From an uncultured Chitinophagaceae bacterium (GTDB lineage Bacteria > Bacteroidota > Bacteroidia > Chitinophagales > Chitinophagaceae), in NCBI GenBank assembly GCA_963819925.1, contig CAWFYG010000005.1, forward strand, positions 381,849 through 445,848: a stretch of DNA of 64,000 nt. Direction: 5' to 3'. Positions 9,014-19,204 of the stretch are shown here, one piece after another. The first letter of the stretch is position 1. Each line of letters opens with the position of its first letter. The notes under the pieces are model-generated. The model saw nothing but the letters and a program-made list of their open reading frames with translations, was not told where the DNA came from and did not search any database. A program made the translations under genes and the position numbers.

Positions 9014-9970
9014 ATGCAAATGAATACCGCTCCCACGTTTTGGCAACGAATAGGCGTGCAGAATTGGTTTCTTAAAAAGGAAGTTGAATACGCTGAAACC
9101 GCAACCATCTCACCCGATATTGTTCACAAATATATCATCGAAAAATTCCAGGAATCTATCGCAGAACTTTCTTTTGCCGGAAGGATAATATTCTATCATG
9201 AATACATCATTTGTTTTAGCCCTCCCGACTACAACAAATTCATGGATAACAATAAAGGCATATTTGGATTCATCGTCCAGGAATCTGTAAAGTCGTTTTA
9301 CAGCATATTGCAAAAGCGCAAACAAAAGGGAGAAAAGATAACTGCTTCATCCAACAAATGGGTTTTTCGTTTTGTATCTCATCCGGATTATCAAAAAGGC
9401 GACAAAAGTTTCATTGGAAAACTCCTGCCAGGCAATTCAACAAAGAATCAAAAAGACGACAATCTTAGGGTCACTTTTATTCCAAGACAAACAGGTATAG
9501 CGCAGACCTTTGATATTGCGGATGAACTATTAAAAGATTTTACATTTTACAGTGACGGGTATTATGAAATTCCTTACCACCAAAACCTTGTTTTAGACGA
9601 CTCCTTATTTGGAACTGCTGCGCCATATTTTGCCAGGTTGGAAACAACACTTCCCGATAAGAAGTATGCTGGTAAAAAACTTGAGTATTTTATGAAAGAT
9701 GAGCAAATCACAGTTTCGGGAAGTGAAGCAACTTCTGAGCAGGCAGGCATTTTTGGAATTCCCTCCGAATGGGTGTCAACTCCTCATCTTTTAATCCGCT
9801 ACGAAAAAAGCACAGGCAATTTCTTTTTAAGTTCTTTCGGTGAGAAAACCATTATCAACGAAGTCGAAATAAAAAACAGCGATCGAAAGGAGCCCGTATG
9901 GACGGCACTTCCGCTAAATTCCAGGATTGTGTTGAACGGCATTGTAACTATAAACATATTCAAAACATGA
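9014..9970 (+). CDS. FhaA-like protein: DUF3662-like N-terminus plus degenerate C-terminal FHA domain
   Basis: AGRIIFYHEYIICFSPPDY resembles the DUF3662 GR...Y.V.LSP.DY pattern. The C-terminal beta-sandwich has WVSTPH, FFLSSFG...TIINEVEI and LPLNSRIVLNG. Confidence 0.6.
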   Translation: MQMNTAPTFWQRIGVQNWFLKKEVEYAETATISPDIVHKYIIEKFQESIAELSFAGRIIFYHEYIICFSPPDYNKFMDNNKGIFGFIVQESVKSFYSILQKRKQKGEKITASSNKWVFRFVSHPDYQKGDKSFIGKLLPGNSTKNQKDDNLRVTFIPRQTGIAQTFDIADELLKDFTFYSDGYYEIPYHQNLVLDDSLFGTAAPYFARLETTLPDKKYAGKKLEYFMKDEQITVSGSEATSEQAGIFGIPSEWVSTPHLLIRYEKSTGNFFLSSFGEKTIINEVEIKNSDRKEPVWTALPLNSRIVLNGIVTINIFKT

Positions 9971-10062: not shown

Positions 10063-11451
10063 ATGGATGATTATTTCTTTGGGATAACGGACACGGGCAA
10101 ACGAAGGGAAAAAAACGAAGATACTTTTATTTCCTGCGAAGTTGTTAAAAATGAGCTCGCGGTTGCCTGTGTGATAGATGGAGTTGGCGGCTACAGTGGC
10201 GGAGATGTTGCTGCTGCAATCGCCAGGACCGTAATCCTTGAGCAACTGGATAATTTGACGGTGGATATATCAGCAACACTACAGACCGCTTTAGTCGCCG
10301 CCAATGCTAAAATACTGGAAGAAAAAAAGAAAGACCCTGTAAATGAGCAGATGGCCTGCGTGGTAACATGTGTAGTAACCGATGTAAAGAACAATAAACT
10401 CTACTATGCACATGTTGGAGACACAAGGCTTTATCTGCAAAGAGACCACTCCCTGGTAAAACTATCTAAAGATCATTCTGCAGTAGGATTTCTTGAAGAG
10501 TCAGGCCGCTTGTCGGAAGCAGATGCCATGCGTCATCCGCGGCGCAACGAGATTACCAAGGCCCTGGGCTTTGAGGAAAATATTAATGATATCGATGGCT
10601 TTATTGAAACAGGCGAATCCCCTTTCCTTCCGGGAGATGTTATCCTGGTGTGCAGCGATGGGCTGTCAGATATGGTTGATTCCAAAACTATGCTTGGTAT
10701 CCTTCTTAATAAAAACAGCCTTGGCAAAAAAGCCGAAGAACTGGTAGTTGCTGCCAATGACGCGGGGGGAAATGATAACATTACCGCGGTATTAGTACAA
10801 AATAATAATCAACCTATGCCGAAGGTCGTCTTAAAACCACCAGAAAAAAAACACGGTGTCGGAAAGAATCAACCTGATAAAAAATCCTCACCCGGAGAAT
10901 ACCGGGAGTTACCGGTTAGGCGTAAACGAGGATTGCTTGTATTGTTAACTCTCGTGCCTATTGGCCTTTTGGCGATGGTATTGTTTCAAAAAGCTACTCC
11001 AAAGAAAAATAATATTATTTTGAACCCGGTGACGGCAAAGCCAAAAAATGAAAAACAGGATCTTTTTATCCGTAGTGCCAAAGATTCCACAAAGACATAC
11101 CAATTTGCCCCGGCAGAAGCATTAGTACGTCTTTCCGAGCCGGTTCTGATCACTAAGGATAGTTTTTATATTAAAGGGAATGGCGCTACTATTACCTGCG
11201 ACTCGAATTACAGGGGTCCCGCCGTAATTATAAATAAAACGCCAAAAGCCATAGTATTGGACAGCATTGTATTTAAAAATTTTGATGTGGCCGTTGTTGT
11301 TCAAAAGAACAATGTGGTCTTTAAAAATGTGAGGTTTATAAATTGCCGTGTGCCGGTGCAGTACCTGTTATCATTTCCGGATACTGCTATATCGGGGCGC
11401 ATAAAAGATTCCATCTTCATCCATTTTAAACCTTTAAAAAGCCACAAATGA
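10063..11451 (+). CDS. PP2C/PPM family Ser/Thr phosphatase with TM helix and extracytoplasmic domain
   Basis: TDTGKRREKNED, VIDGVGG, HVGDTRLY, DHS, LVCSDGL, GGNDNITAV; TM GLLVLLTLVPIGLLAMVLF; beta-rich C-terminus. Confidence 0.93.
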   Translation: MDDYFFGITDTGKRREKNEDTFISCEVVKNELAVACVIDGVGGYSGGDVAAAIARTVILEQLDNLTVDISATLQTALVAANAKILEEKKKDPVNEQMACVVTCVVTDVKNNKLYYAHVGDTRLYLQRDHSLVKLSKDHSAVGFLEESGRLSEADAMRHPRRNEITKALGFEENINDIDGFIETGESPFLPGDVILVCSDGLSDMVDSKTMLGILLNKNSLGKKAEELVVAANDAGGNDNITAVLVQNNNQPMPKVVLKPPEKKHGVGKNQPDKKSSPGEYRELPVRRKRGLLVLLTLVPIGLLAMVLFQKATPKKNNIILNPVTAKPKNEKQDLFIRSAKDSTKTYQFAPAEALVRLSEPVLITKDSFYIKGNGATITCDSNYRGPAVIINKTPKAIVLDSIVFKNFDVAVVVQKNNVVFKNVRFINCRVPVQYLLSFPDTAISGRIKDSIFIHFKPLKSHK

Positions 11452-15669: not shown

Positions 15670-16446
15670 ATGTTCAAACTATTTAAAGATCCCGGAGTAG
15701 ACGTAAAAAAGATCCGTCACACATTGTTGCAATTCATCAAAGAGAAATTACAGAAAGCTGAAGGAGGCGAAGGCGCTGATATAAATGGCATACATCTTTA
15801 TATCAATTGCGATAGCCCCGAACGGTATTTATATGAGTCTGCGGTGTATGCTTCAAGCCCCGGAAAATTTAGAGACGAAATTCAAAAAGTTGCCGATGAT
15901 TATGCGATACTTCTAAGATCGTCGTGGCAATGCGAAGTAGCTTTCACTAATATCTTTCCGGAACACTCTTACCTGGCACCCGAGGTAAATACAGCTCTCT
16001 TTATTTCAACAGGAAAAGCAAGTACGGCTGTTAAAAGATCGCCGGCTTTTATCCGCATATTAAGCGGCACTGCCGAGAAGGAATTGTATGTACTTAACCC
16101 ATCGAAAGAAAAAATAAATATTGGCCGTGAAGCTCAGGCGCAACTGAGCGGTGGCTTTGTGCGGAAGAATGTGATTGCATTTACTGCAGTAGGGTCAATG
16201 GATATTAACCGTTCCGTAAGTAGACAACATGCTCACATTGAATGGGAGCCATCGAGTGGAGCATTTTTAGTCTTTGCAGATGAAGGCGGCATACCGCCAC
16301 ACAATAAAATGAAAATACGTACCGCAGAAGGAAGTTCAATAAAAATGCACGCGATTGAGGTAGGCCATCGCTTGCAGGAAGGTGACCAGGTGATACTGGG
16401 CGACAATGCGGTGCTTGAATTTACTTATTCAGGATTGGACAATTAG
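15670..16446 (+). CDS. FHA domain protein
   Basis: INIGRE, SVSRQHAHI, HRLQEGDQVILG: canonical FHA GR and SxxH motifs after a roughly 120-aa N-terminal domain. Confidence 0.85.
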   Translation: MFKLFKDPGVDVKKIRHTLLQFIKEKLQKAEGGEGADINGIHLYINCDSPERYLYESAVYASSPGKFRDEIQKVADDYAILLRSSWQCEVAFTNIFPEHSYLAPEVNTALFISTGKASTAVKRSPAFIRILSGTAEKELYVLNPSKEKINIGREAQAQLSGGFVRKNVIAFTAVGSMDINRSVSRQHAHIEWEPSSGAFLVFADEGGIPPHNKMKIRTAEGSSIKMHAIEVGHRLQEGDQVILGDNAVLEFTYSGLDN

Positions 16447-16447
16447 T

Positions 16448-18076
16448 ATGGCAAAAGTATTTACGATAACGGAAGGATTAGAAAACCTGGGTGCATTAAA
16501 ATCCGGCGGCCAGGGATCAGTATATAAAGCACGGCGACATGGTGAAATCATTACCGCCATCAAAATATTGCCAACGCCAATTTACAGTGAAACGGATGAG
16601 GATAAAAATTTTTCTTCTTTTCAAAACGAGGTACAAAAATTAAAAAAGGTAAACGAAACATCGAACCCGAATGTCGTCAGCATCGTTGCTTCCGGTATTA
16701 CCACCTCTGGTAATTTTCCATACATTGAAATGGAATATATTGAAGGCACGGACCTCGGTGAATTGCTGAAATCTCCCTGCGACCCGGTTTTTACTATTAA
16801 GGAAACAATTAAGTTGGCTGACCATTTATCCAATGCATTGGCCCATTGCCACCGGGCAGATATAAAGCATGGCGATATTAAAAGCAATAATGTAAAATTC
16901 AATAAGCGTACGGGTAATTATATGCTGCTCGACTTTGGATTATCCATTATGTCGGACGAGCAACGCCGAACCAGTATACGCCATGCCGGCGCGATAGAAT
17001 TTATGGCGCCGGAGCAAAACATGGGTGTAATGTATTTTGAAACAGACATCTATAGTTTTGGAATCATACTCTTTGAGTTGTTGGCAGGTATCGTACCCTT
17101 TCCATTAAATAACCAGGGAGAGATGGGGCGTAATTCGGTGATGCTCGCCCATATGGAATCCAGCCCACCCGACCTGCTATCACTTCGCAGGCAGGCAATT
17201 CCTTCACATTGGAGCCATGAAAAGAAAGAACATGAAATGCAGGTGCCTTCCTGGCTCATCAAAATGGTTTACCGGTGCCTGGAGAAGGAACCTGAGAAGC
17301 GGTTTAGAAATGGAACGGAACTACAGGAGTTTATTCATTCGGGACTTATTGCTGAGGAAACAAAGGCTGCTAATAACTCAACTGAGCAACTAACAGTCGT
17401 CCGCACACAGGAGTTACAGCTAAAGAAATATATCCAAAAATTGGAATTGCTGGCAGCAGAAAAGGACAGCCTGATAGAAGACCTACGAATGCAGGTTGAA
17501 TCGAAAGACAAGGCTCTCGAACAATACCAGTATTCGGATTACTATGCACTGACACCCAAAAAAACGGGGATTTCAAAAAGCCTGTTTATTATGGTGCTGT
17601 TAATTGCCCTTGGCCTCGGTGGGTTTACTACTTATGATTCATTTCTCCGGCCGGTTAATAATAATCTTTCAGATTCTTCGCTCGCAAAGGTGCAACCGCC
17701 GGTTAATCACGTAGATTCTTCTTCGACCGCTAACCATCAACCGCAGAAAAAACCCAGGTACAGATCCACCAAAAACACTGCCTTGCCTGCAAGCAGCACA
17801 GACAAAAAAGAGCCGGAGCAATCGAATAGTGATTTTGAAAACACTTCCTATAAAAGTCCTTCGGCCCGGCAACAGTATAAGGTGATTAACAATGCCTATT
17901 TTTATGTAACTCCCGACATTAAGACCAGGCGCAATGTTTACATTATTCCCGGCGAAGAACCTGTAACATCGCTCAATGAGAAGAACGGGTTTGTTTTTGT
18001 TTCATTTATCGACGCAGAGGGAAAAACCACGAAAGGTTGGATCTTAAAAAAAGATCTCAGAGCGGTGGATGACTAA
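16448..18076 (+). CDS. Membrane Hanks-type Ser/Thr protein kinase with C-terminal SH3b-like domain
   Basis: SGGQGSVY, AIK, HGDIKSNN, DFG, MAPE, DIYSFG; coiled coil; TM LFIMVLLIALGLGGF; C-terminal YKVINNAYFY...GFVFVSF...KGWILKKDL. ATG 16448 lies 1 nt after the FHA stop. Confidence 0.93.
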   Translation: MAKVFTITEGLENLGALKSGGQGSVYKARRHGEIITAIKILPTPIYSETDEDKNFSSFQNEVQKLKKVNETSNPNVVSIVASGITTSGNFPYIEMEYIEGTDLGELLKSPCDPVFTIKETIKLADHLSNALAHCHRADIKHGDIKSNNVKFNKRTGNYMLLDFGLSIMSDEQRRTSIRHAGAIEFMAPEQNMGVMYFETDIYSFGIILFELLAGIVPFPLNNQGEMGRNSVMLAHMESSPPDLLSLRRQAIPSHWSHEKKEHEMQVPSWLIKMVYRCLEKEPEKRFRNGTELQEFIHSGLIAEETKAANNSTEQLTVVRTQELQLKKYIQKLELLAAEKDSLIEDLRMQVESKDKALEQYQYSDYYALTPKKTGISKSLFIMVLLIALGLGGFTTYDSFLRPVNNNLSDSSLAKVQPPVNHVDSSSTANHQPQKKPRYRSTKNTALPASSTDKKEPEQSNSDFENTSYKSPSARQQYKVINNAYFYVTPDIKTRRNVYIIPGEEPVTSLNEKNGFVFVSFIDAEGKTTKGWILKKDLRAVDD

Positions 18077-18232: not shown

Positions 18233-18625
18233 TTACCTATGCATCCTTTTGTAAAGAGACCCAATGATAAAAACCTGTATCAGCACCATTATTAATGCAC
18301 TGGTGAGTATATAAGAAATTTCCGCAGGAATGGCGATGCTGAAATGAGGGATCTTAATACTATTTGCAATCTTGTTTAAGTAAGGAATCTTTGTTGCCTG
18401 TAATTGATAACCACTTGCAAAGGTAAACAGGATAATAAAGCACAGGAACGAAATTACTCCAACTAAAATACGTTTTGGTATCAAAGGTTTGTACACACTA
18501 GCTTTACGACTTGTTTCCATAATGGCACCCATCACATTTTCTGTAAAATCATTTGGAGGAGTATCCAGTCCTTCTTCACAAACTATGTTTTTTATAAGGT
18601 CATCTATTTTGTGCTTGTGTTCCAT
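18233..18625 (-). CDS. Putative membrane anti-sigma factor
   Basis: Directly downstream of the ECF sigma; PPNDFTENVM motif then two hydrophobic helices. Confidence 0.65.
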   Translation of the reverse strand: MEHKHKIDDLIKNIVCEEGLDTPPNDFTENVMGAIMETSRKASVYKPLIPKRILVGVISFLCFIILFTFASGYQLQATKIPYLNKIANSIKIPHFSIAIPAEISYILTSALIMVLIQVFIIGSLYKRMHR

Positions 18626-18628
18626 ACT

Positions 18629-19204
18629 TTACAAATTTAAGATAGAAATTATTTCATTTTTCGATTGTAACATTTCCATCAACTTTGAACGGATGCGATA
18701 CAGTTTTATCTTAACATTATTCTCTTTAATTCCCATTATTTCGGCAATGTCCCTCAGCGGAAGTTCCTCATAATAATACAGCGCAACGATCACCTGGTCG
18801 TCCGGCGAAAGCCGGTGAATTGTATCTTTCATCAATACCCTGATCTCTTTAAGATCAATCTTTTCATCAAGAGAATGGGTTTCTGTTTCACTTTGTTCGG
18901 TATCGCCTTCAGTGATTTCCTTATACCATTTGCCTTTATTCTTTTTTACAGTATCCACGGCGTGATTGTAGGCAATTCTGTATAACCACGTGGCAAATGC
19001 GGCCTGGTTATTATAGCTTCTCAAAGATCGGTAGCACTTGAGAAAAATCTCCTGGGCTGCATCTTCGGCTTCCTCTCTATTGCCGGTTATTTTTAGCGCA
19101 AGGGTATACACCATGTTCTGATACTTTTCTACCAGGAACTTAAAAGCCCCCGTATCGCCGTCCAATATGCGATTGATGTAGATAGTATCGGTATTATTTT
19201 TCAA
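18629..19204 (-). CDS. ECF RNA polymerase sigma factor
   Basis: Region 2 (AEDAAQEIFLK, FATWLYRIAYN) and region 4 (LYYYEELPLRDIAEIMGIKENNVKIKLYR); TTG start. Confidence 0.93.
   Translation of the reverse strand: MKNNTDTIYINRILDGDTGAFKFLVEKYQNMVYTLALKITGNREEAEDAAQEIFLKCYRSLRSYNNQAAFATWLYRIAYNHAVDTVKKNKGKWYKEITEGDTEQSETETHSLDEKIDLKEIRVLMKDTIHRLSPDDQVIVALYYYEELPLRDIAEIMGIKENNVKIKLYRIRSKLMEMLQSKNEIISILNL

Follow-up and report, generated by a model that had tools for sequence, protein, structure and literature searches.

To our knowledge, the control of cell-wall synthesis by Ser/Thr kinases is understood almost solely in Gram-positive bacteria and actinobacteria, with PASTA domains as the input. 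The PASTA kinases PknB, StkP and PrkC are bitopic Hanks kinases in which a cytoplasmic catalytic domain is joined through one transmembrane helix to a wall-associated extracytoplasmic fold, and the actinobacterial fhaA-fhaB-pstP-rodA-pbpA-pknA-pknB cluster holds genes for FHA proteins, a PP2C phosphatase, a SEDS protein, a class B penicillin-binding protein (bPBP) and Hanks kinases in co-linear order. Here we describe a kinase of this bitopic layout, encoded by the last gene of a five-gene cassette in a 64,000-nucleotide stretch of DNA (the window) from an uncultured Chitinophagaceae bacterium of the Bacteroidota (assembly GCA_963819925.1, contig CAWFYG010000005.1, positions 381,849 to 445,848). 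The kinase differs from its described counterparts in having an HGD rather than an HRD catalytic loop and in lacking PASTA repeats, in place of which it carries a C-terminal domain resembling bacterial SH3 (SH3b) domains. Furthermore, the cassette differs from the actinobacterial cluster in that its SEDS and bPBP domains are fused in one protein, in that it holds one kinase, in that the host is a diderm with a periplasmic ectodomain, and in that the cassette appears to be accessory. In the reading that we favor and consider probable, the kinase is the writer of a phospho-signalling cassette that controls an accessory SEDS::bPBP synthase, with the SH3b ectodomain serving as a wall tether.

Precedents exist for both the domain order and the gene neighborhood. 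Synechocystis gi|1006577 consists of a kinase, a transmembrane segment and a bacterial SH3 domain in that order (Krupa & Srinivasan 2005, PMC1262709); it belongs to another phylum, its SH3b domain is recognizable by SMART and Pfam, and no wall-synthase cassette is reported for it. Closer to home, Pedobacter ginsengisoli, also of the Bacteroidota, encodes a giant glycosyltransferase-transpeptidase SEDS-PBP chimera flanked by Ser/Thr kinase and phosphatase genes (Microlife 2025, PMC12516126), a locus that, judged by the passages devoted to it, appears to be the same kind of cassette; those passages make no mention of a non-RD loop in the kinase, of its ectodomain or of FHA partners. A 2025 preprint presenting an atlas of bacterial kinomes does not mention Bacteroidota, SH3 or HGD.

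A non-RD kinase with a single membrane helix

The reading frame of the kinase gene extends from 16406 to 18076, and its start is placed at the ATG at 16448, 1 nt past the TAG stop of the upstream FHA gene, because all homologues open with MAKVFTITEG; the product is accordingly 542 amino acids long (Table 1). The Pfam gathering threshold for Pkinase is exceeded across the entire catalytic domain. The initial annotation of the locus described a non-RD catalytic loop, and this is borne out exactly by the sequence, which reads HGDIK (CAT GGC GAT ATT AAA at 16868-16882) with no Arg before the catalytic Asp (residues 141-143). The other kinase motifs are intact, namely GGQGSV, K39 (TAIK, the beta3 Lys), E61 (the alphaC Glu), D143, N148, DFG162-164 and APE187-189. 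Motifs were counted in 105 full-length cassette kinases from 79 loci, which were kept after a scan at one genome per species had yielded 220 relatives. Of these kinases, 104 carry the loop HGD[ILV]K[ST]NN, DFG and APE likewise occur in 104 each, and 101 have E[EQ]RR[ST]S in the activation loop. Since HGD is so nearly universal and the HG is invariant among 11 aligned homologues, the loop is not a chance or one-off substitution, and the frequency of HGD marks the non-RD state as a fixed trait of the clade. On its motifs, the protein is best explained as a bitopic, Hanks-type and presumably catalytically competent kinase of a Bacteroidota-specific non-RD (HGD) clade. Two relatives, P0015 and P0161, resemble pseudokinases, with HGN instead of HGD and no DFG, and keep the SH3-like ectodomain.

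One question raised by a non-RD loop is how such a kinase is switched on. It had been proposed that the activation logic would differ from that of PknB, with no need for phosphorylation of the activation loop, and this part of the earlier interpretation looks weak. A Thr-Ser pair (T175 and S176) is retained in the activation loop of 101 of the 105 kinases, and we take it to lie at about the same distance from APE as the phospho-threonines of PknB. Moreover, the non-RD receptor kinase EFR needs activation-loop phosphorylation (PMC8463890).

The region between the catalytic domain and the C-terminal module was recovered much as first described, that is, a predicted cytoplasmic coiled coil, one transmembrane helix and a Ser/Pro-rich linker. 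Residues ~313-363 are free of Pro and Gly, with 36% of them charged, and a heptad scan gives I-L-A-K-I-L-V-K-L-Y at the a/d positions over 32 residues. An AlphaFold2 (AF2) prediction from the single sequence of residues 335-542, used for its helices only (its C-terminal domain was poor, with a predicted local distance difference test score, pLDDT, of 52), placed one helix at 336-361 and a second, corresponding to the transmembrane segment, at 377-399. From the heptad pattern, dimerization through a juxtamembrane coiled coil is plausible. Lys residues flank the transmembrane helix on its N-side. The linker that follows (14 Ser, 8 Asn, 7 Pro and 7 Lys among the 74 residues from 397 to 470) is little conserved among homologues. 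Because a single transmembrane helix separates the C-terminal module from the ATP-dependent kinase domain, the module is assigned to the extracytoplasmic side, in agreement with the earlier proposal, and in a diderm host the predicted topology means that the C-terminus must be periplasmic. The same layout of a transmembrane helix followed by the module recurs in most other proteins that carry the SH3-like module.

Table 1. Positions in the window of the kinase, its parts and the other genes of the cassette
Feature	Position	Strand	Basis
Ser/Thr kinase gene (P0001), 542 aa, last gene of the cassette	16448..18076	+	ORF and translation
Hanks-type catalytic domain (residues 17-286)	16496..17305	+	Pfam PF00069 Pkinase, 118.2 bits vs cut-off 31.7
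Catalytic loop HGDIKSNN (residues 141-148), non-RD	16868..16891	+	direct sequence reading
Activation segment, DFG to APE (residues 162-189), conserved EQRRTS (T175, S176)	16931..17014	+	sequence, alignment
Cytoplasmic juxtamembrane helix with heptad pattern (residues ~313-363), putative coiled coil	17384..17536	+	heptad scan, AF2; strongly conserved
Single transmembrane helix (residues ~376-396)	17573..17635	+	hydropathy scan and AF2 helix
Periplasmic low-complexity Ser/Asn/Pro/Lys-rich linker (residues 397-475)	17636..17872	+	composition
Divergent SH3b-like domain (residues ~476-539)	17873..18064	+	AF2 model, Foldseek PDB/BFVD, weak SH3_3, column conservation
First cassette gene, labelled FhaA-like	9014..9970	+	no Pfam/NCBIfam match; position conserved across cassettes
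Membrane PP2C phosphatase, periplasmic C-terminal domain	10063..11451	+	Pfam PP2C_2 2.2e-16
SEDS (FtsW/RodA)::class B PBP transpeptidase fusion, 1382 aa	11448..15596	+	Pfam PF01098 5e-45, PF00905 2.5e-22
FHA-like protein	15670..16446	+	Pfam FHA E=0.0044, below cut-off; present in every cassette

The C-terminal module has an SH3b-like fold

The last ~65 residues of the kinase, which had been likened to an SH3b domain on the strength of their sequence, are well conserved and end in KGWILKKDL. Aligned copies of the module share the signature Y-x-V..A-[YF]-F-[YH]..P-D..[TS]-R-R ... E-x-N-G-F-x-Y-V-x-F-x-N..G-x-T-[ST]-K-G-W-L-x-K-x-D-L, and over 184 module domains the conservation of individual columns reaches 70% for T493, 76% for R494, 73% for R495, 80% for D490, 86% for K534 and 90% for D536. 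Sequence searches with the C-terminal 78-88 residues of the kinase returned nothing significant in Pfam (E up to 1), NCBIfam (E up to 0.1) or PDB sequences. When the members of a 55-sequence alignment were searched, SH3_3 (PF08239) alone among Pfam families matched more than one of them, with weak matches to 12 of the 55 (best E 5.1e-5).

AF2 modelling of the module on this alignment of its copies gave a small all-beta barrel (pLDDT 86; predicted TM-score, pTM, 0.69). The top Foldseek matches to the model in the PDB are SH3 folds, several of them eukaryotic peptide-binding SH3 domains, and those with low root-mean-square deviation (rmsd) are bacterial SH3b domains, including those of the Bacteroides NlpC/P60 proteins 3npf and 4r0k (TM-score 0.69-0.70, rmsd 2.4-2.9), 2krs, the endolysin 4krt and the YrvJ model 9a7d (TM-score 0.76). 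A profile search against PDB sequences had also put the same Bacteroides SH3b region on top at a non-significant score (best E 0.22), a match that was taken as suggestive once the fold search had given that region a high rank too. Three predicted viral structures in BFVD match the model at significant values (E 1.4e-4 to 5.7e-4, TM-score 0.80-0.85, rmsd 1.5-2.0), one of them a phage SH3b protein and the other two unnamed, and among the next, weaker matches (E 0.001-0.004) are a peptidoglycan endopeptidase and a peptidoglycan recognition protein (PGRP). The predicted structure and the fold search thus show the module to have a bacterial SH3 (SH3b) fold.

The module resembles the SH3_3/SH3b domains of NlpC/P60 endopeptidases and phage endolysins both in fold (TM-score 0.69-0.85, rmsd 1.5-2.9) and in its terminal G-W...L motif. 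Unlike those domains it carries its own signature, AYF[YH]..PD..TRR, and falls below the SH3_3 gathering score, and unlike the SH3b domains of secreted hydrolases it is joined across a transmembrane helix to cytoplasmic kinase or methylase domains.

A five-gene wall-synthesis cassette

The kinase gene ends a set of five co-oriented genes encoding, in order, an FhaA-like protein, a PP2C phosphatase, a SEDS::bPBP fusion, an FHA protein and the kinase. Its gene content is that of the FHA, PP2C, SEDS, bPBP and Ser/Thr kinase set of the actinobacterial cluster, the FHA assignments of the present cassette having weak support (E 0.0044) or none in Pfam. The 79 loci lie in Ginsengibacter, Ferruginibacter, Hanamia, Segetibacter and Flavisolibacter of the Chitinophagaceae and in Mucilaginibacter of the Sphingobacteriaceae, and wherever the contig is long enough the five-gene order is identical in all but two of them. 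The PP2C scores 198.7 bits against NCBIfam Stp1_PP2C_phos (cut-off 230). It has a transmembrane helix and a periplasmic C-terminal domain with a faint pectate-lyase-like match (E 0.1), and this periplasmic domain is kept in all cassettes regardless of the kinase ectodomain.

The source genome encodes two further canonical SEDS proteins, making that of the cassette the third, and only 7 of the genus's 19 genomes carry the cassette kinase; the cassette is therefore regarded as an accessory wall-synthesis unit with its own phospho-regulation. The suggestion that the SH3b-like module stands in place of PASTA repeats is a fair analogy, because the kinase, encoded next to a SEDS::bPBP synthase, occupies the position that PknB holds in the actinobacterial cluster. 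No PASTA repeat was found in the kinase by Pfam (E up to 1) or NCBIfam searches, and its match to NCBIfam NF033483 (PknB_PASTA_kin) reaches 140.3 bits against a cut-off of 450 and spans the kinase and juxtamembrane regions only.

Elsewhere in the source genome there is one other Hanks kinase domain (G000:C9:281098-281787, L093), within a 1699-amino-acid open frame. Directly downstream of the cassette kinase, two small ORFs on the opposite strand (18233-19204) look by eye like an extracytoplasmic function (ECF) sigma factor and a membrane anti-sigma factor.

Exchange of ectodomains within the cassette

The ectodomains of the 105 cassette kinases were classified and compared with a maximum-likelihood tree of their catalytic domains. 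An SH3-like module is present in 52, a TPR/Sel1-like helical repeat with a weak TPR_27 match in 12, both in 5, and neither in 36. A large Chitinophagaceae clade that holds the closest relatives of the source kinase is of the SH3 type, its few exceptions being mostly truncated or frameshifted, and the SH3 label must have changed at least six times on well-supported branches of the tree. The four non-kinase proteins, by comparison, are covered over nearly their full length in loci of every ectodomain type, which shows the ectodomain to be the only variable part of an otherwise conserved cassette. The two remaining periplasmic domains, at the PP2C C-terminus and the SEDS N-terminus, showed no co-variation with the SH3 module.

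What first looked like a swap of domains in two relatives from the genus, in which matches stop at residues ~295-309, was rejected, as both have the same C-terminal half split over several frames; the split in these loci (L011 in G007 and L012 in G014) reflects either assembly indels or gene decay. Several loci carry additional kinases. In Mucilaginibacter (L076, L079, L081-L091), two paralogous HGD kinases flank the cassette up- and downstream, both without a folded ectodomain, and in L079 and L082, the loci whose downstream kinase was inspected, this kinase terminates in a cationic tail, ...KKRKKFLGIF. In Segetibacter and relatives (L051, L053, L058, L060), the cassette is followed by two or three tandem kinase paralogues that differ in ectodomain, which is SH3-like, TPR/Sel1-like, or both together.

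Carriers of the module outside the cassette

An exhaustive phmmer search with the module against 1.84 billion cluster representatives (E <= 0.001) returned a family of 533 proteins, counted as clusters at 50% identity. In 164 carriers with 184 module copies, 157 copies end within 12 residues of the C-terminus, a transmembrane helix lies upstream of the module in 116 proteins (typically 70-130 residues before it), and 18 proteins have two or three copies in tandem. Most of the 149 carriers sampled for partner domains have no Pfam domain at all, and the remainder include Pkinase (15), N6_Mtase (14), Trypsin_2 (3) and SH3_3 (2). We conclude that the module represents a divergent and mobile bacterial SH3 family that current Pfam models do not capture.

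The combination of N6_Mtase, transmembrane helix and SH3 module is about as frequent as that of kinase, transmembrane helix and SH3 module (14 and 15 of the 149 representatives). The source genome itself encodes such a protein, of 648 amino acids, HsdM-like, with one transmembrane helix and the module at its end (G000:C8, L094:8470-10416 (-); also L002), and neither HsdS nor HsdR is encoded near this orphan methylase. This layout would anchor a DNA-methylase-like domain in the membrane, with the SH3 module in the periplasm.

This methylase has a bearing on another reading of the kinase, as an anti-phage defence kinase of the PD-T4-6 or MADS Mad6 type whose SH3 module would sense perturbation of the envelope at infection. 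The best PADLOC scores of the kinase are 149.6 bits for PD-T4-6 and 142 bits for mad6, NCBIfam MADS6 is matched at 110 bits, and the methylase, the genome's other SH3-module protein, has a weak mad2 match. These kinase matches, however, extend over the generic kinase domain only, and the NCBIfam cut-off of 460 bits lies far above the score obtained. Furthermore, the gene, which has no defence genes on either side, sits in a peptidoglycan-synthase, FHA and PP2C cassette that is strictly conserved across two families, and the methylase is an orphan. The defence reading was rejected on the generic nature of the matches and the cassette context, and we consider it most improbable.

Many bitopic carriers (P0081, P0075, P0073, P0063 and others) have a disordered cytoplasmic N-terminus, a transmembrane helix, a low-complexity periplasmic linker of 70-130 amino acids and an SH3-like end. 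SPOR proteins such as FtsN, DamX and DedD are likewise bitopic, with a short or disordered cytoplasmic part, a transmembrane helix, a long low-complexity periplasmic linker and a C-terminal domain of ~70 residues. The layout is thus shared by the two groups and the fold is not, the module being an SH3 barrel and SPOR a ribonucleoprotein (RNP)-like domain; nor is the binding of denuded glycans by SPOR attributed here to the SH3 module.

Proposed mechanism and alternative readings

In the mechanism that we propose, the SH3b module, carried on a flexible linker of ~80 residues, would tether the kinase either to the cell wall itself or to some ligand associated with the wall, with the conserved P-D-x-x-T-R-R loop and the G-W face of the module as the most likely points of contact. 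Such tethering would concentrate the kinase where the cassette synthase works, and local crowding together with the juxtamembrane coiled coil may favor dimerization and trans-autophosphorylation, possibly at T175/S176. The two FHA-type proteins would recognize the resulting phospho-threonines and the membrane PP2C would remove them, and the activity of the SEDS::bPBP synthase would be tuned in this way. Peptidoglycan is a plausible ligand, and the most likely one, because the closest structural relatives of the module and the neighboring genes both point to it. The function of the ectodomain may thus be likened to that of PASTA in PknB and StkP, or of SPOR in FtsN-like proteins.

Several observations weigh against a wall-tethering role for the module. 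The first concerns its identity: Foldseek reaches no better than E 0.009 against the PDB, a weak value of the sort common for barrels of 70 residues, and the kinase's own module, trimmed to 72 residues, matches SH3_3 at only E 0.17 and 12.6 bits, below the 27-bit cut-off. A second is that none of the 149 representative carriers joins the module to a recognized cell-wall hydrolase domain. A third is that not all cassette kinases have the module, as all 24 Mucilaginibacter kinases in the tree are without a folded ectodomain and a Ferruginibacter subclade has a TPR/Sel1-like ectodomain in place of SH3. The existence of orthologues with a TPR/Sel1-like ectodomain or none means that sensing through SH3 is dispensable for the cassette.

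The lack of fusions to hydrolases among the 149 carriers would fit a module that binds protein rather than peptidoglycan, be it a periplasmic protein, the Pro-rich linker or a second receptor in a dimer. The eukaryotic peptide-binding SH3 domains among the top PDB fold matches, the frequent tandem copies and the long Pro/Ser/Thr/Lys-rich linkers of the carriers, which could serve as ligands, are consistent with such a role. The lowest-rmsd matches, on the other hand, are SH3b domains of cell-wall hydrolases and endolysins, the three significant BFVD matches include the phage SH3b protein, and the sole recurrent sequence family is the bacterial SH3_3. Nor does an obvious partner emerge from the cassette, as the PP2C C-terminus and the SEDS N-terminus are kept with or without the SH3 module. 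On balance, binding or self-association of this kind is an unlikely but credible alternative to attachment to the wall.

The variability of the ectodomain raises the further question of whether it signals at all. The kinase might be constitutively active and the pathway controlled only by the PP2C and by gene expression, with the SH3 module as an evolutionary passenger or stability element. The Mucilaginibacter orthologues, with only a short unstructured tail past the transmembrane helix, and the repeated changes of ectodomain type on well-supported branches would be expected on such a view, and the non-RD loop fixed in the clade accords with it too, as constitutive activity is expected for some non-RD kinases. 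Yet the Chitinophagaceae SH3 clade keeps the module intact, and where its members lack an ectodomain, the contig is in most cases truncated or the assembly frameshifted. The signature of the surface loop is also strongly conserved across the 184 domains, which argues for purifying selection on a binding function. We therefore regard a mere passenger as improbable, more so than a protein-binding module.

Overall, the SH3 module seems to serve as an interchangeable element for targeting or input, and neither as an obligatory gate for a ligand nor as the core of the signalling logic, a view preferred because orthologous cassettes work without any folded ectodomain. The observations of the initial annotation thus stand, and its interpretation as a convergent peptidoglycan sensor with a different activation logic is partly supported: the SH3b assignment and the PASTA analogy hold up, peptidoglycan sensing is conjectural, and the different activation logic is not supported.

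Implications for wall control in Bacteroidota

What is new here is the clade-wide non-RD loop, the SH3b family without a model, and the natural swaps of ectodomain within one conserved cassette. The gain is incremental because the individual ingredients were all known already, kinase-transmembrane-SH3b proteins since 2005 and kinase-flanked SEDS-PBP chimeras since 2025. The finding nevertheless points to a diderm clade in which a whole circuit is held in one operon, with a writer, an eraser, two putative readers and a fused synthase. The natural swaps among SH3b, TPR/Sel1-like and no ectodomain offer a ready comparison of what the ectodomain contributes to kinases of this type, and cultured carriers exist in Ferruginibacter paludis, Hanamia caeni and Ginsengibacter hankyongi. 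Furthermore, a sizeable SH3-like family for which Pfam has no model is now flagged.

A broader and decidedly speculative possibility, to which we give only limited credence, is that this Bacteroidota-specific SH3b family senses a particular state of the periplasmic peptidoglycan, for example strands that are nascent or lack cross-links, or free stem peptides, and on its long tether recruits diverse cytoplasmic enzymes to sites of wall synthesis. If so, the recruited proteins would comprise non-RD kinases, HsdM-like methylases and disordered bitopic proteins, and the family would be a diderm equivalent of PASTA and SPOR alike. Within the cassette, the module would then couple the local state of the wall to the accessory SEDS::bPBP synthase.

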